A DNA stretch of 54,283 bases, filler included, from Sphacelaria rigidula (taxonomy: Eukaryota): assembly GCA_964200075.2 (NCBI GenBank). It is 5 parts of 5 records of this genome, joined end to end, with 100 filler letters (N's around TTAATTAATTAA, not from the genome) between each part and the next. Parts side by side here need not be neighbours in the genome. Positions count along the whole stretch, not along the records: positions 43,508 to 54,283 come from CAXNAA020005934.1; 4 more parts are not named here. One strand, written 5' to 3'. Shown here in pieces: positions 2,043-54,283 of the stretch. The number at the start of each line of letters is the position of its first letter. Position 1 is the first letter of the stretch. A program made the translations under genes and the position numbers. The notes beneath the pieces were generated by a model that worked only from the letters and a program-made list of their open reading frames with translations, was not told where the DNA came from and did not search any database.

Positions 2043-3699
2043 GTGAGTCGGACGTGGTTGCCTGCTCAGCTCCGTTCGGTCCGGTGTTGCACTCACTCGA
2101 GGCCGATCTAATCCTCGCTCAAGACTTTGGAAAACGATTATTTATCATGAGCGTGAAGTCTGTTTGATCATTGGTTATGTTTCTACTGTTGAGCATGTCT
2201 CCGTGCAACCCTCTCAGCTTCTGCTGTGTGGCACTGTACAATAATGCGACGGTGCTCGGAATAAGGTGAAATCCGAGTACGAGTAACTTGGGGGTTCGAT
2301 ACTCAAGGAACCGCGGCTTCCCCGTCCCCCCGTCAGGTATGAAATAAGGATGACAGAGTTTTTGGGAGAGCATGTAACGCCCACGGGGGGAACACAGAGT
2401 GTCTCGTGTATGAAAATCCCCGTTTTCCTACCTGCAAACAGTTTTATGCCCATTGCTTTCTAATAAGAACGTTAAATGGTCGATTTGTGTTCGGTACTGT
2501 ACTGATTGGCGGATGCCACTGCCAACAAAGTTTGTTGGTGCTGTTCGACAGTTTCTTCGAACGTTTGACCGGACCCAAAGCGGACACGTTCCCTCGGGTA
2601 AGAAGAGCCATATCAATCATCTCGACGTAGTTTCGAAAACCGAACTGTTTTGTTTCCGTACAGTAGCTGTTCCGAATTTGGGTACATATTGACATTTTGT
2701 TATCGTGTGTGGCCTCTTGGCATACGCTCTGCAGACGGAAGTTAGTAGAGTAGAGCAACGAAAGCTCCAGATTGCAGCTGACGCATTCCTCTGCACCACG
2801 CTAGCAACAGTTAGGTCACCACCACAGGTATCTTTCTTCACTCCGCATGTCAAGAAGGTCTCCACAAGTTTTTGATCTCTCTCTCTCACACACCCCTACT
2901 GGCCTGTGGCAGGCTCTTGTGGTCGGGCGCCCGGATGGACAGATACGTCATGTCGGCTAAAATCAACGACGAATAACACCCCCCCCCCCCCCCCCCCCCC
3001 CCCCGCAGCCTTCTTTAATTTGTTTGTTCTCCGCCCCTCGCCCCCGCCCGGTGTGTTCGGAAGGTGAGGGGTCANNNNNNNNNNCGGTCTCTTTAGGGTG
3101 GGGCCCCGGTTGGCAAATCACTTGCTTTCGCTTAAAATAAACGATAAAAACCCCCCCCCCCCCCCCCCCAAGTTCAAATTTGATTATCTGTTATTGTTGC
3201 CCCAGCGCACCGTCCTTGCTGGCATGTGTGTGACAGAGAACAGTAGCAGCGGTGACCGGAACATTGCCCTGTTTTTCAGCGCACAGAGGCGCATCCTGTC
3301 CAAAAAGAGAGGCAGAGAGAAATCGATCTTCGCATTGGTTACCCTCAGAGAAAAGAAGAGACGAAATCTTCCCGCAGCCCGATGTTCTACGGGGATACCT
3401 ACCGGCACATGATAAATTCGGCACGTGCTGGTAACATGCATGGTGCCAGTCTCTCGAGCGATTGGCAATCGCCCAGCGAGGGCACACAAAGGACACGGGC
3501 GAGGAGCTTCCTCTCTGTCGTTGCTTCTCTCTCTGGTGATATCGTCATCGACACGCGTGTACACCGCAGTCGTTCGGTGCATTCAGCCACAACTGATGAT
3601 TCACAGTTGCAGAGTATTGGGGGGAGAGATGGTTTTGCTCTGTGTTACTGTTTCGCATCGCCCCTGCAAATAAGATATGCCACGTGAACCTCACTTTTG

Positions 3700-12508: not shown

Positions 12509-13760
12509 TAACCTTCGCTAGTTATTCGAGAGCTCCGTGATCGGTATAGATGTGGAAAGGCACGTGGAACAAGTCCTGTCCAACCCTTTTAATAGCCCAA
12601 GTTATGCCTCCGCCTTCGAGTTCAAGGGAACTCCAGTTTACCTCGTTTGGGAGGGTTGCGCGGCTGATGTATAAAATAGGTCGGACAGAGCCATCCAGCT
12701 GAGGCTGATTCAAAACGGCGCCGAACCCATCTGTGCTAGCATCGGTGTGTAGTTGGAAAATACGTGAGCCGTCTTGTACCGCATCCCAATCCGGAAAACA
12801 AAGAACCGGTTTTTCGGTCAATATTTTGAGCAGTTCGCGGGCGGTGGCTTCCATTTCGTTAATGAAGACAAACGGGACGTTTTTCTTCAATAAATCTGTG
12901 ATGGGCCGGATCCGCTTGGGCAAGTTGGGCAAAAACTTGCGATAGTATGAAAGTCCACCCAACAGCGAGCGAAGCTGCGAAATATTGGTGGGCATGGGCA
13001 TATCAGTCACAGCCTTGACCTTGTTCGTGTCTGGGTGCGATCCAGCAGGAGAAATAGAGTGTCCCAAGAAATCCAATTCAGTGGCTCCGAGTCGAGCTTT
13101 GGATGGAGACAATTTTAAGCCGTGTGTACGCAAGCGGGAGAGAAATTCCCGTAGAGTTCGAACATGCGCCTTGGGGGGGGCATCAAAAGCGATATCATCG
13201 TCTAGATACATGATAACATGCTCGAGACCGTCAGTAACGCGTTGCATTAGGCGTTGAAAGCAGCCAGGTGCGGTGGCAGCGCCTTGTGGCATAGGACACC
13301 ATTCAAAAAGCCCTGAAGATGTACAGAACCCTGTCAAGGGGATTGTATCTGGATGGATTGCATTTTGGAAAAATCCAGATGCCAGATCAGAAGTGCTGAA
13401 TATTTTTCCTTCGCCGAGAGAGTCGAAGACTTCGTCGATGCGAGGTATGGGGAGTTTTTCTACGACAGTGACGCGATTCAGCCGTTTGTAGTTCACGGTG
13501 ACGCGGATGTTGCCATCTTTTTTGGGGACGACCGCGAAGGGTGAGGCCCATGGCGAAGACGAGGGTTGAATCAGACCAGCTCCTGAGTATGCATCTAAAG
13601 TAGCATTGACTTTTTGGTGAGGAGGGGATTCGTTCGATACGGTCGAGATGAGATCGGCGAAACGCCAGGTTGCAGGGTTATCTGGAATGGCAATGTTTTA
13701 CAATGCCCGAGATCCGTCTTGGATCGGAAAAACCTGTCCTGATATTCCAGGAGAACATCG
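12509..13760 (-). pseudogene. Gypsy reverse transcriptase and RNase H (3' end of RNase H missing)
   Basis: SRPYR; VNYKRLN; LPIPRIDE; DLASGFFQ; MPQGA; YLDD; FLGH; LRSLLGGLSYYRKF; TDAS..GFGAVL; ELE; YTDH. Stop after HGALE and truncated at LAKV. Confidence 0.95.
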
Positions 13761-18968: not shown

Positions 18969-21099
18969 CCTGCCCCACCCCTTTCCCGGCTGAGATCCTG
19001 ACCCCCGTGGGCACTCTACCCGCCCCCGCTGCCTCTAAAGTGCTCGAGCTGGCACTCAAAGGTACCGTCTTCACGACTGACGAGGACGTTCATCTGCTTG
19101 TCCGCCGATCCAAATCCCATTTGGGCACGGCTGCCGCAGTAACAACTGCCACGTCGGCACTTCTTCGTCATGACGTCTCTCTCCGCATCTACGTCCCTAT
19201 CATGATGCGTCCGTGGGTCATGAAGGGCTGTCACTCTGATTTGTCCTGCCACTTAGGCGTCACGCGCACGTTAGCGCTCCTTGAACGCTTTTATTGGTGG
19301 ATCGGCATGGAAGCATCCACGCGTTTTTGGATCCGACGATATTCCAAATGTCAGGCTCGCAAAACCTCTCGCCAGACTGTACGATGGCCGTTGATCTCCA
19401 TGTAGATTCCAAACGCTCCTGGTCACTTCGTATCGTTCGACTACTTCGGTCCTTTACCCCCAACTGACCGTGGTAATACCTACATTCTACTTTTCACCGA
19501 CCGCTTCAACCGTCACGCGGCTATGTATGCCGTAACTGCTAGCGATTTCACTGCTGCTGGCACACCAGACATTCTCGTCCATGACTACATTAAGCACTAT
19601 GGCTGCCCGAAACGGCTCCTCTCCGACAATGGTCAACAATTTTGCTCCGAACTCTCGGATGCTTTGTACAAGCTCCTCGGCATTCGCAAAATTGCCACGA
19701 GCACCTACCACCTTAACGGTAACGGTGGAACTGAACGTGTGAACCACACGATGGCTCAAATGCTATCCATGGTCGTGAACGACCGCCAGAATGACTGGGA
19801 CCTTCATCTTTCGCATGTCATGCTGTCTTACAACAATTCGGTTAACGCAGCTACGGGCCTCTCGTCCACCGAGCTGCATCTTGGACGCTACCCTCGTCTG
19901 CCCATCACCGTTTTTCGAAAGACATACCTTCGATGGCCACCAAGGTCTGGAACAGGATCAGATGTCCTACCACGACCTCGCCAGGGTTCGTCAGCGCAAA
20001 GCTTTCATCTTGGTGCGCGAACAACACGCTATCAACGCCTCACGCCTTGAAAGATCAATACCGCCCTCTACAACTTGATGCACAGACGCCCTACTTGGAA
20101 GATCGGTGATTGGATCTGGATCTACAACGGTTTGTCCACCGTCCGTCAAGGCGCTGACCGCGCTGCCCAGGCAACAGCCTTCAAGACCAAACCGTCCGTC
20201 AAGTGGACGGGTTCGTTCAAAATTCTCATGGTCGGACCCTCGCCGACATCTCCTGACGGCAAGCCCGTTGGCGACAAACTCCTCTACCTCGATTTACGTC
20301 GTGACCTCCAGGGGCACGACGCTAAATCTCGCGTCTCTGTGCATCGTTGCAAGCCCTGCACGAACCCGCGTGGCACCACGGATATGCCTCAATACCTGCC
20401 CGCAGGTCTCACCCAATATGTGCTTAACAGCTACTCAACAAAATCTCCACTGTACCACGTTACCACCGATGACGTGACTGAACAACCTCTTCGCTTGGCC
20501 GTGCCCCACATTTCCGTCCAACAAATCACTCGAGGCCCTGGCGGCAAAATTGCTGTCATGTACAAGACATACTGGCAAGGTCTTCGGCGTGCGTCTTGGG
20601 AACGCGAGTCCGACCTTCAACTGCACCGTCGTGCCATCCTTCTCTACCGGACACAATCCCCACAGCAATAGCTCACTGACGACAAGGGATATCGCAACAT
20701 GAGACGCGGTGCTGCAGCCCGTGAACTCCACCGCGACAAAGGACTACGTTTTGTCGCCGACGGTTACGAACTCGTACCCACCAAATAATGGGACGAAAAG
20801 ATTCGCGCTAAACAACAACCGCTCCCTAAAGGTGCCTACTTGTGGTATAAGGGCAGCGATTACCTCTGGTGGCTAGGTCAGATCCACTCCGTCGATGCCC
20901 TCGCGGCCGACACGTACATCGTGCGTTTCCTCGACGACCCTGGGCCCGTTCAGCTCAAGCTTCGCCCTGATTTTTATACACGACTAACCCCTTCGCACCC
21001 CGCCGTTCCTGGTGCCTACAACGCTTCAAGTCACACGGCTTACGCCGAGGTCTTCAGCGCAATATCGATCGTACACACGACATCAACGCACCATCTTGA
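18969..21099 (+). pseudogene. Gypsy integrase (H2C2 zinc finger, DDE core, GPY/F) with C-terminal chromodomain-like and Tudor-like modules
   Basis: CHSDLSCHLGVTRT...YWW...KCQARK; VSFDYFGPLP; LLSDNGQQF; YHLNGNGGTERVNHTM; KWTGSFKI; YKTYWQGLRRASWERESDL; WYKGSDYLWWLGQI...YIVRFLDD. Stop at 19403 plus later stops and frameshifts. Confidence 0.92.
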
Positions 21100-21296
21100 G
21101 TTCTATCTCTTCGCACTCCCTTTATCGCGCTTTTTATCTTCCCTACCAGTTTGGTTCTGGTACTTCCTTCGTCCCCTCCCAGGTACGCTCTACTCTTCAC
21201 TGCTTCACCTACGATGAATCTCCTCTCGCGACTCATCCCTGCTCTCATCAACCCCTTCGACGACTTTTTCTGGAGCCCCTTCGCCCCCTTCCATTG

Positions 21297-21345
21297 CATG
21301 GTCGATGGTCAAACGACTAAGGCAAGCAACAAATGAGTACGCCCC
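21297..21345 (+). mobile_element. Extremely 5'-truncated LINE 3'-end insertion with TSD
   Basis: CATGGTCGATGGTCAAACGACTAAGGCAAGCAACAAATGAGTACGCCCC, flanked by duplicated CGCCCC(C)TTCCATTG at 21282-21296 and 21340-21353. Same 3' end as the LINE copy ending at 52300. Confidence 0.85.
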
Positions 21346-21655
21346 TTCCATTGGCCTCTACGCTGCCGCCACTTTGTCTGGCTGGCACTCGACCCTATTC
21401 GGGTCCTTGAGTTTTTGTATTTCTGCTTGAGATTGCCACTGTGTCCTTTGCGAGGTTTTCCTTTGCTTTTTATCTAGCTAGCGCTTCAAAGTATTGTGTG
21501 CTTTTTCCGTTTGTTCGCTAGCTCGCAGCAGAATTGTGTGCTCCTGCGCGGTCAACCGCAATTAACAGTAGTTTCGTGAGATTGAGAGTGGATGGTGCGA
21601 TTGAGAGTAGGCTTTTCGAGGCTCTCTGCGGCGGGTTGTGCCTGCATTAATGGAC

Positions 21656-21755: not shown

Positions 21756-24700
21756 CTCGGTCCCGGCTTTGTAGGGATCCGAGGTCAATAGTCTCATGAC
21801 TATGGCATGCATGATCATGAGTACTCCCCCTCTGCCCTCGGGACGAGTCCGCGGCTTCGAATTCTCGACACATCTCTTCGAATGTCGCACATGATTACAC
21901 TGTTCCGCTCACGAATTATGGCGGAGTTACACAATTTCAGGAGTATGTACTGCCTATACGCAGAGTAACATGATAAAGGGAAATACTCGCCTACGGGAAA
22001 CTCGAGTAAAGGGAAGAAATACGAACGAAAGAAAAGCAACAACAGCAGAGAGCATTGGAGAGAAGAGCTTTGACGAGAGTAATACGATGAAAAATAAATG
22101 GGAATATAGGAAATCGGGTATATGCCGTGGTTTCAGGAACAAAAAAGGGTAGGACACTTGTCCGTTCGGGGCCCAGCGCCGCACGCTGGCTGAGCACCTC
22201 TAAAGCACGTACCAGCGTCTCAGCCCCACGACTAGCGTGCGTGGGCAGCATGCCCAACTCCGTCTTTTTGAAACATGGCAACAGACTCCGCTAAGGCGCA
22301 TAAATGGCGAGCTTATACGAGCAGCCTATTTTGTCCATGAATCAGCAGGGCATACCCGACTCTCAACTTGAAGGTCGTATGGTACCCCTATTTTGTTTAT
22401 TTGGGTACCGTTTTCTGGTGACGTGCATACCCCCCTTTTATTCAGTGGTGACCATACCGCGCACTGTGCAGAGGACACGCCGAACAGTCCCGACCATACC
22501 CCCATTTTGTCTATTTTCACGTTTCCGAAAAGCCCGAAGAACCCAGTGTCCAAGATATTATGGCCTGCTGCTGGCTTCTCCGCAGTCCTGAAAGACCCGA
22601 AGATGTGTGCAGGGAGCGAACGCTCATGTTCGATAGGTCACAAAAATCCAAAGTATATGTGAACAGTCTTGCCGTCACACACGCCTGCGCAACGGCATAT
22701 GATGTGGTGGGTCAGAGCGCAGCGGGATCGGAAGTTTTAGATCGAGACAAATCTTCACCATATGCAACTGTTGTCGGCGACCGGACTGCAGAAGAGTGTG
22801 AATCGGATGACGTTTAATCGGATGTACTACTGAGGAAGTGTGACACTAATATTTCAGATCATCGGAAGGAGCAAGACGCGACGTTCCCCCACCGCAGTGG
22901 AACCATATGGGTGCCGCTTACGAACGATATTTGGCAGCTGCGCGGCACCCCCGCTGGCCCTTGAAAAAAACACGATTTATTCACCCCGGTCAGCCCTCAA
23001 AAAATAGGTGCACGGGTGGAAGCTGGTACACGTCATCCGCATTTTAGAGCATATCGAAGTTATAGTGCATCATGGATGGGTTGAACGATGTGCGTAAGGA
23101 ACAAAATCGGGTTGTGAGTGTACGCGTTGTCGCGTCGTGTAGCCAGTGTATACCCCACCGATGTCAGGAGGCTACATGGAGTCTCGATAAATGGCTATGG
23201 CGGCCCAGAAAGGTAGGAGGGTTTATCCCAGTTCTCTCTATGATGGGCACGTTGACGGGATAGTGCTAACGCTATTGCTAACCCTAACCCCAACTGAAGG
23301 CATGCAGAGAGCCCTCGGGTGAGGGATAGCAAAGGGTGTCGTAGGCAAAGTGAGCGTTGGCAGACGAAGAACGCCTTCAGCAAACGGTTGGAAGCACTTG
23401 GAGTTGCCAGCGCCACCGAAGATCCGGATCTCGGTGTTTGTGCTCGAATCAATCAAGTATATCAACCACGGATAGAATGACTCCGAACTGGGACACACTC
23501 TGCTGCACAAAGCACTATTATAGTTGCGCGTTGACCCGAGAGAGGAACGGTCACAAAAATTGGAACACAGGGAAGCAACCATAGCCAGAGACGAGAAAAA
23601 AATGATGAAAATAACGTATTTTCAACGCGACGCAGTCGGTAACGGTAGACATAGCGCGGCGCCTTCACCTGTTACGTGTGCTCGACGTTCCTGAAACGCC
23701 AATAATTGTTCAAGTAAGTGCCTCATGCCCTGCAGCCAGGAAACTCTGTGACTTCACAGGGTAGTACCGTACAGTGAGACGAGGGAAGCAAGCAGAGCCT
23801 ACGGAGTAACTGGAAGCATGCGTCACAACCGGAAATGTTCGTCGCGAGCCACGTCTAGTTGCCTGAAGAACAGAGACGTGCGAACGGATAGACACGCCTC
23901 TGAGATGGAATGGTAGCCTGCCAGCAGCCCAGGGAATTTCCCTGCTGAATTCTCGGAGATGGTGTGAATGATGTCTTCTATATATGGTACAATTTCAAGA
24001 TGGCAATACATGGCCTATAGGATGATGATGATACTCGTGAATTGACTTGCAATCCTGGACGAGCCAGTGGTTACCTTTTTTGCGACATTTACGTTTTTTT
24101 TTATTTGATACCGCCGTTTTTTTAATTGATTGTTGCACTTTAACTGACCCCCCAGGGGTCCAGCGTGGTCTCATGATAGACGTACGTACCCAAGACAAAA
24201 CAAAACTGAAACACTCGCCGAAGAAAAGAAAAATCAGAAAAAAAAGAAGTCGAACAGAACGACACAGTAGACCAAAACCTGAAGAAATAAAAATAATATT
24301 GGGGAGAAAAACGTCAACGAAAGCGAAGCACAGAAAAAAATGGCCGACCTAACACAAAAAAAGGATAGAAAGAGGAAAGTAAAGAGCTAATAAGATATAG
24401 TAAAATAATATGACGACCAAAGAAAAAAAAATCCATGTAGTATATTTACAGGTGCGCCTACGAGTCTTTCTTTTATTCAGCGTAAATACGACGCTGCACG
24501 AGTACATCAGGCTGCACGAGTACATCAGACGTTACCAGCTCGATTTTTTTATTCTACCATACCTTCAGCCCCTCGCGTTCCTCGGAACGATTCTGCGGTC
24601 TTGGGGCATCGACCTACGTCCCCCTTCCCGACGGTACCCAACTTACATTTAGATGTGGCAGACTAGACCAGCACTTCCGCACCGCATCGACTCTAGTCAC

Positions 24701-37380: not shown

Positions 37381-38151
37381 TCATCAGCCGCGCAAAGGAG
37401 AAATCGTAGTACTACGTAGTGTGTTTAAATGGTGAGACACCCATGAGGCAGTCTGTAAGCCGCTGCTGTCTCTGGAAGTGGCGATACGCAGAAAATAAAG
37501 CAGCTCATTGGAGGCTATCATCCAAATGCAAGATAATCAGTACGCTTCGGGCGGAACAATCTTGGCAGGATGCAGCTTCACCCTTCACGCGACTCGCCGA
37601 ACACACCACGGCGCCTCGCGCTTGGTGATTTGATTGCGAGCCTGGTCCGGCGAAAACCCGGCGTGGTCCGTCCCGGCTTTGTAGGGATGGGAGGTCAATG
37701 GTCTCATGACTACGGCACGCAAGACCATGAGTACTTACTGACGGTGGAAGGCGAGTTCCACAGCCGTATATCATGGGGCTCGCCATATAAGACAAGCTCC
37801 TCAACGAACGTGGGGCATCACTGTACCACAAAATAATAGCTGAAAGCGTTGCGAATCTAACTACGATGCGCTTCAATTTCGGCGAAGCATATTGACTGTG
37901 GAGCTTGATTATTTGTGCTTCGTTATTTCAATACATAGCTTGTGTTGCAGGTCGACGACAACGCGGAAACTTTATCGCCTGACTGTCATGCTTTTTCCTT
38001 CTTTTGTCCTTTATCCCTGTGACCCTTCATCCCTGTGACCCTTCATCCCTGTGACCCTTTATCCAAGTGACCCTATATTCGGTTACCCTTTATCCACTTA
38101 CCCTTCATCTCGTTGCCCTTATTACCGTGACCCGTGCGTGCCGTTGAGCAG

Positions 38152-42018: not shown

Positions 42019-43305
42019 TGCACTGAGTGGCCAATTTAGGGGGTTTTTTCTCCATACAGCTGGCTGTGTAGTTGGTCGGTTCATTTTCCCTGTGTAAAGT
42101 GCCCAAAATCGGGCCCCATTCACCCCCATAACTGTTGAGCGTGGTGTGAGTAAAAATCACAGATCGCTCCGAGAGTTGTACCCACGATCCAACCGCCGGA
42201 GGGTATCGAAGTTACCAACTGAGCAACCGGGGCGATCGGGGTTGTAATTCGAGTAGTAGCTCCTAATGTTATCGTCGGATCCACTCTGTACCCTGTAATA
42301 CTCGATTTTTGGGTAACCGATACCTCAGGTACGGTGGAATAACCCGGTATTTTTCTCGTGGTCAACAACTCAGGTACCCTGAAATAGTCGGTAGTGCAAC
42401 AGCGCTGGAAATCCAGGGTCCCTGAGAGCAGCACTCATATCACAACCAACTTCGGGTCGTTTTAGTCCCGCTGTAGTATCCCTTGAGCAGAGAGCCAAGA
42501 TCGAAGCGACCCTGGCAGAGCTGCGTCTTCGCCCGAAGCATTTCATTTGGCCGGCGTTACGCACATGTACTTGTTTCTCCAAACCTCTATGGTCCTGAAT
42601 CGGTTCATGAGCGATCATGTGGGATTTTTGTCGGCAGATGTGAGCGTGTGCACATTTGTACTCGCCGGACACAATGTGGTCAATACTTGCAGTAGGACTG
42701 TACTTTACGCAGTACGTTTGTTTTGTTGCAACTATTGACCACATGTTGTTCTGAGTGTGACATATTCTCACTTGCCGGACTGGGTCGATGCCACGGCGCT
42801 GTTGATTGTCGGCGCACGAAATAACTTTTTGTCGACTTACGCACACTTTGCAGAGACACAGAGATATGCCGTTAACGACAGGGGTGACATTGTTGCTGTT
42901 TTCGCATGGTTTTCCGGGATATGTCAGCTGTGGTTCAGGGTACTGGGGGTATTGAGCATATTGTCTTTCCCTTGCCCTAAAAATAAAATAAAATAAACAA
43001 GCATCCAACCATCAACCAACCAATTGATTAATTAAATCATTAATTATTACTATTATGTGCACCACTTAGTTGACCCATGACGTAGACGATATTACGTGTC
43101 GTTTCGCTGTTCAACAATTTGGTTAGTCTAAGGTTGTGTTCGATTGGAATATGACGATTTTAATTTTTGCCATTTGGTGGAAGATATTAGTCATGTGTCG
43201 TACACAGACAGCGAATGTGTCGAACCAGGCATCCTGCGGCTGTTGGTGTCCTCACCAAAACTCACGGCGTCATGAGCCTCACCCACGATCGGGATGGGGG
43301 GGGGG

Positions 43306-43338
43306 CGTACTCATTTGTTCCTTGCCTTAGTCGTTTGA
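43306..43338 (-). mobile_element. ~33-bp LINE 3'-end insertion inside a poly-G tract
   Basis: Reverse complement TCAAACGACTAAGGCAAGGAACAAATGAGTACG, between G10 (43296-43305) and G23 (43341-43363). Confidence 0.8.
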
Positions 43339-43407
43339 GAGGGGGGGGGGGGGGGGGGGGGGGAAGACGGGTGATGCGGGCCATAGTGGGGGGACGAGGG
43401 TAATGCC

Positions 43408-43507: not shown

Positions 43508-44045
43508 AAATTTGGACAGTCTTTGAGAAACTAAGAAATTACGGATTCTGCATACTTCTTACGCTGACTACTGTATGTCGGATTTGACAAGCAGAGGCTG
43601 TCCGCAAGTCCGCCTTTTTCCCAATTCAGGATAAATTGGCGGGAAAAACGAGGACTTTTGAGAAGCTTCTGCTGCTCAAAGTCTATACGCCAGTGTATGG
43701 GACTTGGAAAGCGAAGGCTGCTTGAAATAAGTAATCGTTTTGCTCAATTTGGAAATAAATTGGGCAAAGCGAGGATTTTTTTCCAACAGCCTCTGCTGTA
43801 CAAATTCCAAATGCCACTTTCTACGATGGCCCCCCTTCAAAAAGTGGCTGGTTTGGGGACGCAAAACCTACACGTGAATCGAAACGAAAAAGGCCGAGCA
43901 CAACGAGCAGCTGGAAATTCCAACGCTTGGGTTCGTTTTCGCCAATGTTGCCTATACGAGGCGCTTCATGCAGCCTGAAAGCAAACATGAGGCGCTGTAT
44001 TAACATTCTCTTCGTGACAGTTTTGGGCTGTTTTTTGGGGGGGGG

Positions 44046-44111
44046 CGCCCTCATTTGTTGCTTGCCTTGGTCGTTTACCTATTGGCCACGCATCCCTGTC
44101 GAGACGGAGCA
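44046..44111 (-). mobile_element. ~66-bp LINE 3'-end insertion with G-rich TSD
   Basis: Reverse complement matches 52236-52300; flanked by TTTTGGGGGGG and TTTTGGAGGGG. Confidence 0.75.
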
Positions 44112-45221
44112 ATTATTTTGGAGGGGTCTATTGTAGAAAGTGTCAAATATGCTGTAACACGTATAGATAGGATTTCCACAGCATGAGTGCCTTCAGCAAA
44201 AATCCAGGGGACCTCGATCTCAACACAAACCCTCAGGAGAGACCCCAACGTTGAAATCCGCTAGAAAATTGCAATACCGAAGATAAGGTCCGACCCTCTA
44301 TTGGGACACCCTCTACTATGTGCACGACTCCGAAGGTACCATCTCATGTACCCTTCGGCGAAAGCAAAGTGTCCACTTGTGCATGACGCTCAAACGCTTC
44401 CTGGATTTCTCCTTATTGGTTCGCAATTTCTTGCTGCTGAAATTTGACAATCCTGTTGACTGCGTTGCTCGGGATGGTTGATAATCGAAAACATTCTGCG
44501 GTTGTACCTCTTCTATTTTAGGTACAGTTGTATCATTATTACTGTTTATGCACCTAGGTGATTGTACCGATTTACTGTTCAGGTATAATACAGGTGACAC
44601 AATCCATCTGAATTGTTCGGGTATGTATGCAGGTGCTTGAACTGATTTTTCTCACTACTTGTCTAATGTGGAACCTGTTTGCCTATAGTGATGGATCTAC
44701 ACTCTTGGCTCCCTGTGCTCCTTCAATGTACGCTTCCTTGGGTCGTAAAGATGACTGATGCTGTCGCTGCTTCTTACTGTGCTGACGAGAAATATTACTT
44801 TTCAAACTTGTAGATGTGCATCTACTCTTCTTCTGATCTGCTGTCTCAGACTTAATCGATGCCATCTTATTTTTATCTCTCTTCTTCTGGTTCCCACTTG
44901 AAAAAACAAATATTCGTCTCCTTCTGCTCTCCTATTGACCAACAGAGCTGTGCCAACGCCTTCGATTTTCCTGACACTAGTAACACCCAATAAAAAAAGT
45001 TGAGGATGTCGCATTTCATTGATACGATTTTCATGAACGCGATCCCATCCAAGTTGATAGTCCACCAGGGACGGCCGGCAACGGTTCATACCAAACATCC
45101 TCTCTTCCTTCCGTGGGTTGCTATAACCGTGAGCAAAATGAGTTTGTGTTGCACCCGAGAAAATACGTCCGCTGTCTCTCAATCTCACGAAAACGTTTAA
45201 TGCAAGCAACGAATATGTACG

Positions 45222-45875
45222 CCCCCCCCATATGTTCCAACTCGTCTCGAAGTTGATACACTCGTGTCGAAAATATATCGGGATCTTCACCCTGCGACAT
45301 AATTAGGTTGTCTAACTGCCTTGTTAAAATGCATCGCGTTTGCCTGGCCGAGTTCTGATATTATTTCGTAACTAAGCTATCCCAAGCTTTTTTCCATTGG
45401 GTCTTTGTGAGGTGTTTAGTTCGAATAGTAGAATATAACTTGCTGCGGGACCGGTTGTAGTCAGGTACAACATATGAAACACCACTTCATTATTGCGATG
45501 GAAATCAGCTGTTTCTTGCGCGTTACGGACTACTCTTACATGGATGTCAGTCCTATCTGCTCTAACTGTGAGATCCCGAGTTGATTAGATAGCCACTCCT
45601 ACTGCCGACTCTCTTCTGAAGACGGTTTTGTTCCTGCTTCCGTTGGAAGGCTTCTAGAACGTGCAGCTATAGGGCTTACCCTTGACGTACTTCTAGCACT
45701 GGACTGTGAAATTTATAAATCCTATCGCAGCCTAAGGTCATAAATTTCCCCGGGATAATTTCCGCCGTTAATAATTTTTGAAATGCCCGGGTGTGTTGGT
45801 AAAACTACACCCGAACGGACTGTTTTCACTGGAGGAAGTCTGTCCCGTTAAACGTACTGAGACTCCGTATCACTT
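45222..45875 (-). pseudogene. Ty1/Copia gag relic
   Basis: SLSTFNGTDFLQ*K ... VFHMLYLTTTGPAAS ... KKAWDSLVTK*YQNSARQTRCILTRQLDNLIMSQGEDPDIFSTRVYQLRDELEHMG, a UBN2/Retrotran_gag_2-like pattern with stops and a frameshift. Confidence 0.65.
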
Positions 45876-48515: not shown

Positions 48516-51500
48516 CCGTGTACCCCTTTATGCGAAGTAATGACCGTACCGTAGGCTTAGCAGACAAAATACCGAACAGGGACAAGAGTACCCTTTTTCG
48601 TCAAACTACAACTCGCCAAAAAAGCGGAAGTCCAACGACAAAGAAAAAATTGTAGCCGACTGCTGGTCGCCCCGTAGATCCACAAGACCCGGCGATGCAT
48701 TTAGGGCGTAAACGCTTGTGTGCGATATATTGCGAAGATCCGAACATAGGTGAAAAGTATTGTCGGCACACGCCCGAATGGCATCTGCGATTTGCTAATT
48801 GCTTAATTTGAGTGTAGACACAGGTATTCGGAACGGGTTGACAGTCCCGAGTGCTTCGTGCACTTCTGGCGACGAACAGGTCGCGTACGGCACTGTTTGC
48901 ACCCCTCTTGCCCGTGGGTTCTCGGTATGCACTGAGTTGCTGTTGTCAGCATGCTTGGCCGCTATCGTACAGCGTGAACCGGGTTGTAAAACACATGCAC
49001 GACTATAGAGTCGAGTTTGCACTGTTTACACAATCACAGTGTCTCCTAGAGAATAGGGTTCAACATTGAAATGAGGTTCAAACTCTCTTCGAATTTTCCG
49101 CATTCTTGTCCAAACGAAATGAATTTGGGACAGTTTGTTCCTGTTAAGAGCGAAGCAGATGTGTCTCTGGGTATTATCCCAAGTACCATTATGTACAACT
49201 GGTTGCTGGCCGGACAACGGTACAGATTTCGCGTGCGGCCATGTCGTATAGAAGGCAGACACATAGAGGCGCTCTTGGCATGCCTCGTGAAACAAGAAAC
49301 CTCTGGCAGTGGCTTAGCTGCTGCTAGCGTAGCTCACAGTCGGGCTGGCATACGGTACCCTGTGAGCTGCGGTGCGCTGTCTCTGATGTACAGGCAACGC
49401 GCACTGGGAACAGGAGACGTATCTTTTCCTCCTGTCGACGGTCAAAAACTATGCAAATAACACCAGACGCTTTGGTCTGACGCAAGAGGTGCTTCCGTGA
49501 CGAGCAAGGGCGTTCTCGTAGCACATGGACTGCTCACTGCTTCATTTGTAGCTCACGCCGTCGAGCCCTCACCAAAACGTTCTTGTGTAAGATAGCCCAT
49601 GTCATGTTTCAAGGATCGCAGCTGAGAGACATGCCCAAGGAACGTTAGCAACCTTAGGGCAACAGAAAGTATGAGGAAATGCGCGGGGTATGTCACAAGC
49701 GCCGACAAGTCGTGGCTATATTGTCCACACACAACTGCTACCGGACGAGTATCGTGACATACATTTGTGATGCTTGGATGACCGTGTTGTCGCGCGCTTT
49801 AACAAGTTGCCACGCCCGGAGCTGCAGCTCAGTCGTACTTTCCCTTTCCTTATTGCGCATTCTGTAGCTACCGTCTCTAAAGGCCATACGATGAATCAAT
49901 TACGACTGACTATAGGCAAATTCATTTAGACATGGTATTTCTTTGTTACGCAGCACCTAACCCTAGGAATATACTGATATTTATCTCCTCTGGTAGATTT
50001 GAAACGGCTGTGTCTAGGTGCGGGGAGTCACTGTCATCGGCTTTCCTCAACTTCAAAGAAAATTATGCCAAAGGTTTTCGAACATCTCTGGAAATGATGA
50101 AGAAGGAACACTACTTATGAGAAGTAGAGGAAGTGCAGCCGTTCGTGTCTCGGGAAAGAAATTCCTCTGCTGGAAGCGCTTTACAGATGAAACAATTGGA
50201 ATTTTCATTGGTGGAAAACTCCCTCCCCTTTGCGAATTGGGACATCTTGTTCATGAACTCACTTATTCTACGTATCCTCTCAACCCTTGGACCGCGAGGG
50301 TAGTCTATCTGGACCACGCATAACTTTTTCAAGTAAAGTTGATGCCGATTCGACAGGTGACCTACTTTCGTCGTCGAAGAGTTAACAAGCGTGTTGAAGG
50401 TATCCCCCAGACGTGGAGGGTTTGCTGGTTCTTGGGGTATGTCCCCCCCCCCCCCCGCAACGACAGCAAGAACAGCCGGTGAACACCACAAGCGCCACCA
50501 GCCCAGGCCACAAATAAANNNNNNNNNNCGAAAAGGTAACAAGCGTGTTTAAGGGGTCCCCCAGACGTGGGCGGGTTGCTTGTTCTTTGGGCATTTCCCC
50601 CCCCCCCCCCCGCACAGGATAAATAACTACGCCATCCCCCCCCACACAGGATAAGGCTCAAGTGCAAGAGCAGTGAAACGAACCGTCATGTCACATTGTC
50701 GTCAGGGAGCGGGCATCTCCCCCCCCCCCCCCTGAGATACGCAAGATATTTATCGAGTAAAACTACGGTAGGATGCGCAATGGATCTATTCATTATTACA
50801 TATATTGAGTATCTCTTGCAGGGAGGAATGTGCTATAGCTAGAAACGAGGTGAAAAAATGGTGGACAAGAAAAGTAACGGGATGCGGGAAGACGTTGATA
50901 AAACAAATAAGGATTTTGTTGGCGGGATGAAACAAATGTGGGTAGGGATAAAGGGTATTCTCGGCAACCGGGCAGGAGAGGCATACGAGGGGGTAACCAC
51001 CCTAAGGGCACAGATCGATGAAATGGTTAGTAGTTCGAAGGGGAGGGGAGAAACTCTAGCAGAGCATTGCAGACAACTAAGGAAAGCAACAAGTAACAAG
51101 CTGTTTAACGCGGAATTCGAGAAAGAAATCAATACGTGGGTACAGGCAAATGTGGACGGGTTCAAAAGGGAAGCTAATGACTCGAAATAATTGCAAGGAG
51201 AAGTTGCAAGATAAGACATGAAGGAGTATGTAGCTAAACTCGCGAACAGGAAGGCAGTAGGGGCAGACGAAATATTGCATGTATTTTTCAAGTGCGGAAG
51301 AGAGGGAATGATTACCATTATTATGGTTATACTATATATTTGGATGTGGGAAAGCGACTAGACACCCAACCAAGAGGTGAAGAGAAGGGGTACTAGTGAG
51401 CCTTTTCAAGAAAGCAGACAAGACTGACCCGGGGAATTATAGAGGGATACCGCCACTGAACACCGTAAGGGTAACGTTCAGTAAGATTCTGAAGGATAGA

Positions 51501-51596
51501 ATGGGAACGGCCCTAGAGAAGGAAAACATTCAGCGGGGTTTGATCTGATTGATGGATTGTCGCACTTTAATTGACCCCCCCCCAAAGATTTAGCGG

Positions 51597-52322
51597 GGGA
51601 CTGAAAGAGGGGATAGGGATGAAAACATGAAATTTTTGCATGGCCCAATGGGCGTGGCGAAATATTTGCAACTACGATTTCGGGTGGGGGACCTGCACCT
51701 GCAAGAGAAAAGAAAGAGATTTTCCAACAGACGAGAGGAGGAGGAAGTAGATGCACAGAACTGTCCCTGTGGCAAAGCAATAGAGAGCAGAACCCATAAA
51801 GTTGCAGAATCTGAACTATACAAGGAGGAACGGGACATGCTAGAGGAGGGAATGCGGAACGTGAACGAAGGTGGCGTAAAATCGTTTGATGCATGGGACA
51901 GCAGCGAAATAACGATGGCTATACTAGGAGATAAATGGTGGCCACAGACGGCGAAACAGAACGGGAATATGATGTCTAAAATGTTTTTGTGTGATGTATG
52001 CAAGAAACTTAATGAAGACCTACATGTTGAAGGCGTCTCTATCACACCCTGGACAATATGTGGTCAATACTTGCAATACACAATAAACGTACTGCATAAA
52101 GTATAGGCCTATTGCAAGTATTGTCGGCCGGCAATACTTGCAATAGGCCTATACTTCATGCAGTACGTTTATTGTGTATTGCAAGTATTGACCACATATT
52201 GTCCAGGGTGTGGTCTCTATCAGGAGTAGGAGCGATGCTCCGTCTCGAAAGGGGTACGTGGTCAATGGTCAAACGACTATGGCAGGCAACAAATCAGTAC
52301 CCCCCCTCCCCCCCCCCCCCCC
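51597..52322 (+). mobile_element. 5'-truncated LINE copy of the same family, with intact 3' end, C tract and ~20-bp TSD
   Basis: Encodes LRFRVGDL...QNCPCGKAIESRTH...ILGDKWWPQ. Ends AAATCAGTAC + C run. Flanked by C9-AAAGATTTAGCGG (51575-51596) and Cn-AAGGATCTAGCCG (to 52335). Confidence 0.85.
52043..52212. mobile_element. 170-bp spacerless palindromic MITE with 8-bp TSD GTCTCTAT
   Basis: CACACCCTGGACAAT...ATTGTCCAGGGTGTG, centre CGG|CCG. TSD at 52035-52042 and 52213-52220. A degenerate relative lies at about 42665-42750. Confidence 0.9.
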
Positions 52323-52642
52323 AAGGATCTAGCCGTGATCACATCATAGTTTTTTTTCGAGATGAAAAAATCTGAAGCACTCTCCGAAAAAAGCACGAGA
52401 AACATAAAACATAAAACTAAATAGTTGAGTAGAATACGAAGAAATATGAACATGGATGAGGGGGTGAGTAGGTTTGAGACCAAATCCTAGTTGCTCGGAC
52501 CATGTGTACACTTCAGGTGAGGTTTTTCAAGGTAGGAAGTACACCGGGCTAACAGCGTACTGTTACTTTCTAGACATACAAAAGGCCTATGGCACAGTAT
52601 GGAGAAACAGGCTGTGGAAAAAGATGTGGCAAACTGAGATAG

Positions 52643-52939
52643 ACAACGTTTTCCTGAGATTGAGAGTAGAGCGCTGATTGAGAGTGGTTTTGATCATTCG
52701 CTTTAACTTGGTCAATTTTTCATTCTGGGTGTGCTTGTCTTTGCCTCCATCACTGGCGTGTGCTCACAAGTACAAGTCGATATCCTACTCAGGGACATCA
52801 AGAGTCTCAGTGGCAAGCTACTACAGAAAACATGTCGGGCCTCGTGGAGGGGAATTTCGGAACTGAAACGATTTATTCACTATTTGACCGCTTTTCACTC
52901 TCAATCGTACCCTCTACTCTCAATCTCACGGAAACGTTG
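52643..52939. mobile_element. ~300-bp MITE with ~28-bp TIRs inserted in the LINE RT
   Basis: CAACGTTTTCCTGAGATTGAGAGTAGAG ... CTCTACTCTCAATCTCACGGAAACGTTG, with GATAGA repeated on both flanks. The same TIR motif occurs near 21571 and 45176. Confidence 0.7.
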
Positions 52940-54283
52940 TTGATAGAGGAAATATGTGAAGAATGGAAGAGATGACAAAGTGTGCGACAAGTGCTATGGT
53001 GCTAGACGGGAAAATATCGAAATAGTTTGATGTTTTGCAAGAACTTGCACAATGATGTACGCTATTGCTTTGTTCAGTCAAGGTAATTCTTGAATGACCT
53101 GATGAGAGCAACAGGGGCAGCAAGCAAGGAGTCAGCGTGGGAAAATATGCGATATGGGGATTGATGTTCGCGAATGATTTCGTGCGGATATCAGAAACAT
53201 GAGAAGGATTGCAGAACAAATAGAGAAGGGGCTAGGGTACACTAGGAAGAGGAGAGGGACAGCGAACGTGAACAAAAGCGCGGTACTTGCGTGTAACGAG
53301 GATAACGAAAACCCTGCCGAGTTCAAATGGAAGTGGGAGAAGAGGAACTACCAGTCGTAGATCAGTATACATACCTTGGCGTGAAGATATAAAAAGGCTG
53401 CTTTTGGGATGCAAATATAAATTGAGTGATAAAAAAGGGTGAGGCAGAGATAGGCGAGGTGAACGTGATCCTAAGAGACTCGCACCTGAGTACTAAGAGT
53501 GAGATATTTGTTTTGATGAATGTAATTCTACCGAAGCTGGAATGTGCAGGGGAAGTTGTGGAGGGGAACGCGAAGTTGGTGAAGAAGTTGGAAACGGTAC
53601 TGTACAAAAATTTACCGGATGCTCGAAAACGACGAGTAACACAGCATTGAGAGCAGAGATGGGAATGTACCCACGTAAACACATGAAGGCATGCAGAATT
53701 TGAAAGGATAGTTTAGAGTAGCGAACGTGCCACCAAAGAGATTGCCCGCCATAGTTGGCAGCGCCGTACGGAAGAAAATGACGAGAGGGCAGGCTAGAAT
53801 ATTAGCGTCGTCGAGAAAGCGTGGAAGAAGATAGGGGAAAACCAAGACAAGATGATGTCCGCAGGTGATGTGGCAGGTACGAGGGAATAGTAAGAGACAC
53901 GATAGAAATGGGAGAAAATAAGCGCCGAGACGGAAAGTAGACGAGGAAGAGCACCTGAAGATATACGTGGGTTGATAGGGGGGATAGGGATGATAACATA
54001 CACGCATGATCCAATGAACTACTCGACAGAAATTATACTGCGATTTCGGGTGGGGGACGTGTACCTGCCGAAAAGAAAAATGAGGTATACCAGTCGTCGA
54101 GTGGAGGAGGAAGTAGATGCACAGAATTGCCCCTGTGGCAACGCAATAGATAGCAGCACTCATATAGTGAGAGAATGGGGACTATACAAGGAGGAACGGG
54201 GCGTGCTGGAGAGGGAAATTTGGAAAGTAAACCGCTCTGGCATGAAATCGTTCACGGTTAGAACAAATCACCACGACTCAAAA

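Follow-up and report, generated by a model that had tools for sequence, protein, structure and literature searches.

A C-tailed LINE family inserted at C/G runs in the brown alga Sphacelaria rigidula and a proposed G-run/oligo-C route of target-primed reverse transcription

A 54,283-nt stretch of the Sphacelaria rigidula genome assembly GCA_964200075.2 (here called the window, meaning the whole stretch, in which five ~10.8-kb pieces are joined by N44-TTAATTAATTAA-N44 spacers) carries several copies of a long interspersed nuclear element (LINE) that end in oligo-C. We consider it likely that these copies belong to a very abundant, mostly 5′-truncated family of LINEs with an APE-type endonuclease, which inserts at C/G runs by target-primed reverse transcription between a G run and an oligo-C end. 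Domain content, tail, truncation pattern, C runs at the insertion sites and arrays of repeated ends were all observed directly, and by every feature tested the element is an APE-type non-LTR (long terminal repeat) retrotransposon, that is, a LINE.

A first-pass annotation of the same DNA had listed five 3′ ends on three of the pieces, all followed by C runs and never by poly-A, and a motif scan recovered all five. The 41-nt 3′ motif gave three matches at up to three mismatches, with 0 expected from 100 shuffles, and its last 15 nt gave five matches at up to two mismatches, with 0.15 expected, at 21326, 37347, 43307 (minus strand), 44047 (minus strand) and 52286. Searching the window by BLAST with the near-full-length relative L002 returned seven copies, of which six are short or truncated and one, copy A, is long and older, and a further diverged 3′ end (c6) was recognized by eye at ~45180-45221. 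Five copies on the plus strand keep the 3′ end: c1, 47 nt at 21295-21341 (21282-21353 with its flanks); c2, at least 49 nt at 37314-37362 by BLAST and reaching 37385 with its tail; c7, a diverged end at 37683-37734 that is 79% identical to L002; c6, old and diverged, which reads ...GCAAGCAACGAATATGTACG plus C8 over 45180-45229; and copy B (also c5), which retains the 3′ ~530 nt of the LINE at 51597-52299 (BLAST segments 51585-52040 and 52213-52300). On the minus strand, c3 is a 33-nt 3′ end at 43306-43338 found by both BLAST and motif (43296-43363 with flanks), and c4 is a 66-nt 3′ end at 44046-44111 (BLAST 44050-44111; 44031-44126 with flanks). Copy A, on the plus strand, is 5′-truncated at residue ~546 of the open reading frame (ORF) and is split into a first part at 50739-51536, spanning reverse transcriptase (RT) motifs 1-2, and a second part at 52461-54283, which starts at RT motif 2a, is frameshifted and runs off the end of the piece; its BLAST segments against L002 are 50821-51524, 52461-52636 and 52945-54252. 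Together with a probable 13-nt copy, c8, at 50597-50654 (plus strand), the retained 3′ lengths are 13, 33, 47, at least 49, 66, ~530 and ~2,500 nt, which is the common 3′ end with variable 5′ truncation that characterizes LINEs. Judged from an upstream variant that they have in common, ...GCGAAA(A)CCCGGC...CCCGGCTTTGTA[CG]GGATG... (37180-37362 and 37540-37734), and that is unlike L001-L004, c2 and c7 form a separate subfamily. GGTCTCATG is common to c7 and L003.

After the conserved ...GTAC(G), the sequence continues with C4 in c1, C5TC6TTC4 in c2, C10 in c3, C9 in c4, C7TC15 in copy B and C8 in c6, so that tails range from C4 to C23 with frequent T interruptions. A run of at least 4 C follows the 3′ end in six of the seven window copies, extending the five that had been listed, and poly-A follows in none of the seven; as a baseline, 310 of 107,662 strand-specific window positions (0.29%) directly follow a run of at least 4 C. 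Outside the window, scanning with a 21-nt motif retrieved the same end from three marine metagenome contigs and, in the prokaryote genome collection, from one contig of a mis-binned metagenome-assembled genome (MAG). There, ...AAATGAGTACG is followed by C8, C10, CCTCCCCCCCTCCTCCC or C13, the flanks of the four copies are unrelated to one another, and all four have an oligo-C or C-rich run. The MAG, which contains L004, has a single copy of the 3′ motif, and the viral contig collection scanned for this motif gave no match. Some sequencing chemistries are known to produce homopolymer C/G runs as an artefact, and the runs could in principle come from assembly or sequencing, for instance from no-signal reads called as poly-G; we give this explanation practically no weight, as the runs are internal, have unique flanks and duplications, and recur in four independent assemblies from other sources and in the contigs of three samples. 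Among window homopolymers of at least 8 nt, nine are C and six are G, compared with nine A and eleven T, the longest being C26, G23 and C19. Seven of these 15 C/G runs adjoin the LINE family.

A search with the ORF fragment carried by copy B returned relatives that are 61-67% identical to it, and in their 90% cluster are the full-length relatives P0157 and P0164. P0157 is a single ORF of 1,376 aa with an endonuclease at residues 187-431 (PF03372, Exo_endo_phos, E 7e-11; PF14529, Exo_endo_phos_2, E 3e-7) and an RT at residues 757-1006 (PF00078, RVT_1, E 4e-32), and near its C-terminus lies a CCHC motif, CX1CX8HX4C, with the sequence CPCGKAIESRIHIVGEC. The RT, Exo_endo_phos and Exo_endo_phos_2 domains are present in both P0157 and P0164, and the RT motifs are readable in copy A of the window. 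An APE endonuclease with RT in the relatives and 5′-truncated copies in the window agree with the earlier assignment to the LINEs. The N-terminal ~185 aa of P0157 (186-207 aa were tested) had no Pfam match at E ≤ 10 beyond a meaningless match to DUF4834, and no counterpart was detectable among 170 other proteins collected. No second long ORF was found upstream (>150 aa on L002; >120 aa on L001, L002 and L006). Homology extends to the start of L002, and L002 and L006 have at least 1.1 kb of 5′ sequence in common at 81% identity, indicating that the element is ~5 kb or longer; no LTR-like repeat was seen in the element sequence of L002 and L006, which stops short of the true 5′ end.

The 3′ end is made almost entirely of coding sequence. 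P0157 ends ...VVNGQMTKASNK, the ORF end reads ...NGQ(M/T)TKASNK, and L002 ends ACT AAG GCA AGC AAC AAA TGA, followed by GTACG and then C10. As the TGA (within ...AAATGAGTACG) lies 5 nt before the tail, the 3′ untranslated region (UTR) is 5 nt long and the conserved "3′ end" is the end of the coding sequence. When the terminal ~100 nt of five copies were folded, z-scores lay between +0.3 and −1.6 and no structure stood out, while Rfam at the gathering threshold gave no match in the window and ARAGORN found no tRNA-like gene in L001, L002, L003 or L006. The sense strand also has an internal run in the N-terminal coding region, G10 in L001 (4141-4150) or G8 in L002 (3888-3895), which places a C run on the other strand and is a possible self-target in antisense orientation.

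The 5′ junction is readable in six copies (c1, c3, c4, B, A and c8), and in all six a C run ends 1-13 nt upstream of it; from the ~0.3% of positions that end a C run of at least 4, a rough estimate of the probability of six out of six by chance is ~1e-8. At c1, CGCCCCCTTCCATTG (21282-21296) and (A)CGCCCCTTCCATTG (21340-21353) flank the copy as an exact repeat over 12-15 nt, just as quoted in the first-pass annotation, and CGCCCCC in the target agrees with ACGCCCC at the end of the element itself. At c3, the order on the element strand is C23 (43341-43363), 2 nt, the 33-nt copy and C10 (43296-43305), which are the G23 and G10 that had been described there. The duplication reported at 44033/44116 around c4 is also present, with CCCCTCCAAAATAAT (44112-44126) and CCCCCCCCCAAAAAA (44031-44045) on the element strand matching at ~12/14 positions and the downstream C9 tail running into AAAAAA. 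Copy A is preceded by C14 (50719-50732) and TGAGAT up to the junction at 50739, so that the run ends 6 nt upstream, and its 3′ end falls beyond the piece. At c8, the sequence runs C15, GCACAGGATAA, ATAACTACGCCAT, C8 and ACACAGGATAA; the duplication is clear, being identical at 10/11 positions with a C run before it on both sides, and the 13-nt insert resembles the last bases of the element (~11/16), which makes c8 a probable LINE copy. Clear duplications beginning in the C run are therefore present at c1, c4 and c8, and target-site duplications of variable length are found at these three and, ambiguously, at copy B. When all C runs of at least 8 nt were scanned for duplications of the form "C run + 10-mer", only B and c8 were returned, and the other C-tailed repeats had none.

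Copy B offers a view of a site before insertion. It is nested in a host repeat of ~190 nt, repeat X (51537-51583 and 52323-52477), which has an internal C6-C9 run, is bounded by the duplication GGTTTGA at 51537-51543 and 52471-52477, and itself interrupts copy A between RT motifs 2 and 2a. Copy B had been described as linked to an RT; this link did not survive, as the RT fragment at 50739-51536 belongs to the older copy A, which resumes at 52461, and copy B covers only ORF residues ~1205-1376, ending ...AAATCAGTAC. Upstream of it stand the C9 of the target (51575-51583, plus strand), possibly part of a duplication, and AAAGATTTAGCGG (51584-51596, plus strand); downstream stand the tail C7TC15 (52300-52322, plus strand) and AAGGATCTAGCCG (52323-52335, plus strand), which is homologous to repeat X. 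The upstream flank (51575-51596) and the downstream one (52300-52335) match at 10/13 positions after their C runs. A paralogue of repeat X at ~24118-24310 (plus strand) has no LINE insertion and reads ...CACTTTAACTGA C6 AGGGGTCCAGCG..., representing an "empty site" for copy B; the C6 at the insertion point indicates that the C run predates the insertion. Together with the six junctions, this paralogue bears out the earlier claim of insertion at poly-C/poly-G tracts. Copy B also contains a near-perfect palindrome of 168 bp at 52045-52212, with 85-nt arms that are 98% complementary and no spacer, flanked by a 10-nt direct repeat, GTCTCTATCA, at 52035-52044 and 52213-52222; L002 is uninterrupted here, and the palindrome looks like a foldback insertion or one resembling a miniature inverted-repeat transposable element. 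Compared with L001 and L002, copy A has a 46-bp insertion (50775-50820) and a ~308-bp stretch of no LINE homology (52637-52944), which may be further nested insertions.

The C runs on both sides of the copies could be produced in different ways. If the endonuclease alone recognized and nicked G/C homopolymers, the downstream C run would mostly be duplicated target and pairing would have no role in the choice of site. Sequence-specific endonucleases are established in other LINE clades, and at c1 the downstream C4 is no longer than the upstream C5, so that an element-derived tail is not needed there, while at c3 the downstream C10 is shorter than the upstream C23. However, the outside copies in their unrelated flanks all carry C8-C13 right after GTACG, and copy B has a tail of 23 nt compared with C6-C9 at its site, which fits an element-borne tail of variable length; we regard the endonuclease-only explanation as unlikely, and it is not exclusive of a model with pairing. 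The tail might also be made during integration by non-templated addition by the RT at the nick, being present in neither the RNA nor the target. Non-templated nucleotide addition is generally known for reverse transcriptases and tail length is variable, from 4 to 23, but addition at the 3′ junction does not explain why the 5′ junction, too, has a C run upstream of it in six of six cases, nor why the uninterrupted paralogue of repeat X already has C6, and we find this explanation very improbable.

Our preferred model of G-run/oligo-C priming would proceed in four steps. The endonuclease would nick the G-rich strand within a G/C homopolymer or next to it, and the exposed 3′ G run would pair with the oligo-C end of the element RNA, which would have been transcribed from the C run of the source copy itself. 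The G run would then prime reverse transcription, and the second strand would be cut 0-13 nt beyond the run. A second cut at this distance would yield duplications starting within the C run, and microhomology would be frequent at the 5′ joints. We infer that pairing, rather than or besides the endonuclease, sets the insertion site. As each new copy would bring a new C run, insertion into the tails of older copies and head-to-tail arrays would be expected.

Arrays of this kind were found in public sequencing data. Logan contigs of four sequencing runs (X1-X4) were aligned at ≥80% likeness to positions 1-720 of L002, a reference in which the flank occupies 1-103, the tail 104-113, and the reverse-complemented element begins at 114. 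Between 50,050 and 113,204 contigs matched per run. The loose ends with the best support fall immediately before places 104-107 and comprise 3,025, 2,819, 2,781 and 1,815 contigs in X1-X4; their consensus past the 10-C tail has 13-20 further G on the plus strand, equivalent to C on the element strand; no T-run (poly-A) consensus was found among the matches listed, with 3,283 further rows standing outside them. For X1, bins in the flank had a summed word depth of 77-638 and those in the element reached 26.9 million, a measure that is not a copy number. In addition, each run has 327-407 contigs that depart from the reference at place 179, which lies 66 nt from the 3′ end, and continue as ~26 G in consensus, indicating a C run upstream of a 66-nt unit, and among the joints listed, 48-119 contigs per run jump from 177-182 back to 104-108, indicating head-to-tail units made of the tail plus 66 nt. 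Beyond ~70-80 nt upstream of the element end, summed depth is lower by a factor of about four to seven.

These arrays probably arise by serial insertion into older tails. The head-to-tail joints, the fixed unit of ~72-79 nt and its sharp start 66 nt from the 3′ end would also suit a satellite or tandem repeat that recombination has spread, or chimeras formed by template jumps within single events, in which the 3′ units and C runs would not be serial insertions. The family, however, also occurs as dispersed single copies with different truncation points (13, 33, 47, 66, ~530 and ~2,500 nt), with their own flanking duplications and in unrelated sequence, and we consider the satellite or chimera explanation improbable, although template jumps could account for some of the arrays.

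Several observations weigh against the G-run/oligo-C model. Six of seven ends in the window and four of four outside it finish in C, which is the reverse of the poly-A ends that the first-pass annotation had named as evidence against its proposal, but c7 is an exception in which GTAC is followed by TTACTGACGG, with no C run. Similarly, in P0164, a near-identical relative, the reading frame continues past the 3′ end as ...MGTFFFLFVFG, indicating T/C-rich sequence after GTAC instead of a pure C run. The oligo-C on the element RNA is predicted from DNA sequence, and, because the C run is a homopolymer, sequence cannot tell a duplicated run from a run that adjoins the duplication. At copy B, the duplication proposed around 51597-52322 stood only in part: the C9 and the 10/13 flank match are present, but the upstream 13-mer (51584-51596) also aligns to the LINE-internal AAGATATACGG of L002/L001 with one mismatch and one gap, so that it appears ambiguous between a duplication over 5′ microhomology and simply LINE sequence, and no clean duplication can be claimed. 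The set of readable junctions leaves out c2, c6, c7 and the full-length copies L002 and L006. The four Logan runs represent three samples from two studies, and one of these samples may be the source of the window itself. Finally, simple random truncation does not account for a sharp 5′ end at 66 nt from the 3′ terminus.

The 66-nt unit may have a function of its own. Copy c4 of the window starts exactly at the unit start, and this start coincides with the start of a C-terminal protein motif: ...V[VA][NDY]G... occurs within the last 22 residues of 15 of the 113 relatives listed, compared with 0.25% of other 22-residue windows. The typical C-terminus of these 15 is ...G[SA]AHxxGCVVNGxxAMAAx*, with a variable region before it (P0177-P0204 and others), and their identity is 39-91%, ten of them lying at 37-42%. 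That ...G-x-V-V-N-G... is kept at the C-terminus of ~40%-identical relatives suggests that the terminal coding stretch might double as an RNA element recognized by the RT, and the pattern hints at conservation for a role at the RNA level. We tentatively propose, as a doubtful possibility, that the last 66 nt and the oligo-C tail form a self-sufficient retrotransposition cassette, that 66-nt units spread as non-autonomous retroposons and build arrays through each other's C tails, and that other C-tailed repeats are mobilized in trans. Repeat families with C tails that could possibly be mobilized in this way lie at 2940-3004, 3110-3169, 50383-50456 and 50537-50611.

According to PMC3747384, L1 and Alu depend on a 3′ poly(A), with "relaxed" recognition, many LINEs need their own 3′ end, with "stringent" recognition, and known non-A tails include the TAA repeats of the I factor and the TGTAA repeats of UnaL2. 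The present family resembles the I factor and UnaL2 in its non-poly(A) tail of variable length and in a 3′ end that is probably recognized by the RT (PMC3747384). Their tails consist of 3-5-nt repeats after a structured 3′ UTR, whereas the homopolymer here comes directly after the coding sequence, and, unlike theirs, the target of the present family carries the same homopolymer as the tail. With the L1-type LINEs of mammals and plants, the family has in common an APE endonuclease, an RT and a C-terminal Cys/His motif, along with frequent 5′ truncation, duplications of variable length, a variable homopolymer tail and a match between the tail homopolymer and the start of the duplication. It differs from L1 in that the homopolymer is C and not A, with poly(A) in none of the window or outside copies, and in having a single ORF, no separate ORF1 and a 3′ UTR of 5 nt. 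The nick site of L1 is TTTT/AA. The present family could be described in effect as a C-for-A counterpart of the L1 rule that the tail matches the target.

Other LINEs also target repeats. Waldo, Mino, Kibi, Koshi, Dong, TRAS and SART, like the LINEs here at their six of six C-run sites, insert into a simple repeat that matches the 3′ end, their targets being simple or telomeric repeats (di- to penta-nucleotide repeats and telomere arrays), but to our knowledge none of them targets a C/G homopolymer; LINEs that target simple repeats are known in the R1 or R4 clades. Zepp and Zepp-like elements of green algae have poly(A) tails, and their new copies insert into older tails to form nested head-to-tail clusters; the present family likewise inserts into the tails of older copies, clustering through C tails instead of poly(A). 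The single ORF, very short 3′ UTR and non-A tail are RTE-like, but RTE elements are defined by a compact endonuclease-RT protein of ~1,000 aa that has no C-terminal Cys/His motif, unlike the 1,376 aa with CPCGKAIESRIHIVGEC near the C-terminus found here. A PDB search gave L1 ORF2p at 3e-21 and the R2 protein at 6e-20, which does not separate L1 from R2, and the ESM Atlas returned only generic endonuclease-RT clusters, and cluster names are uninformative on clade; membership of the L1, RTE or repeat-specific clades is not shown by these data. Among named proteins, the closest are unnamed products of Ectocarpus sp. CCAP 1310/34, with 57-68% identity to P0002, and the same protein set has 42-71% identity to residues 640-1376 of P0157. 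For the kelp Saccharina japonica, the LINE classes Jockey, RTE, L1 and CRE and their ages have been described, with no word on tails or targets in the available part of that paper (PMC4421812), and PMC12592211 has nothing on LINE classes. In Creative Commons-licensed PubMed Central papers and bioRxiv, a search that did not cover Repbase or Dfam, we found nothing relevant on a C-tailed or C/G-tract-targeting LINE.

Other features were seen in the window. At 2940-3004 and 3110-3169 lie two related ends, ...GCTAAAATCAACGACGAATAACA plus C26 and ...GCTTAAAATAAACGATAAAAA plus C19, which in one frame read ...MSAKINDE* and ...LSLKINDK; tblastn with P0157 found no LINE homology upstream of the C26 (2979) and the C19 (3151), and the two ends may represent another family of C-tailed retroposons. 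A ~51-nt unit is present twice, at 50383-50456 and 50537-50611, in copies that are 86% identical and end in C14 or C15, and a third, unrelated stretch at 50644-50732 ends in C14, so that all three pieces ending in C runs cluster just upstream of copy A. ORFs of an LTR retrotransposon lie on opposite strands at 12525-13697 (minus) and 19406-20047 (plus); one has RVT_1 and RT_RNaseH (E 1e-22 and 2e-19) and the other an integrase core at E 2e-7, which falls slightly short of the Pfam cut-off.

Target choice by L1 has been debated between the specificity of the endonuclease and the pairing of the A tail with the nicked T-rich strand. A LINE that uses C for A and lands at C/G runs would be an independent natural instance of the rule that the tail matches the target, and exchanging the tail or the endonuclease between the two systems would put the L1 question to the test. 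Runs of C/G are able to adopt G-quadruplex and i-motif structures and cause trouble in sequencing and assembly; the family would seed such homopolymers through the genome and would account for a peculiarity of it, as in the window C/G runs of at least 8 nt (15) are nearly as common as those of A/T (20). If the 66-nt cassette proves true, its units would perhaps be the smallest non-autonomous retroposons known, a C-tailed counterpart of the L1/Alu system, and they would be the chief source of the C/G homopolymers of these genomes. With more than 50,000 matching contigs per run, a family of such abundance is likely to shape genomes among brown algae and related lineages.

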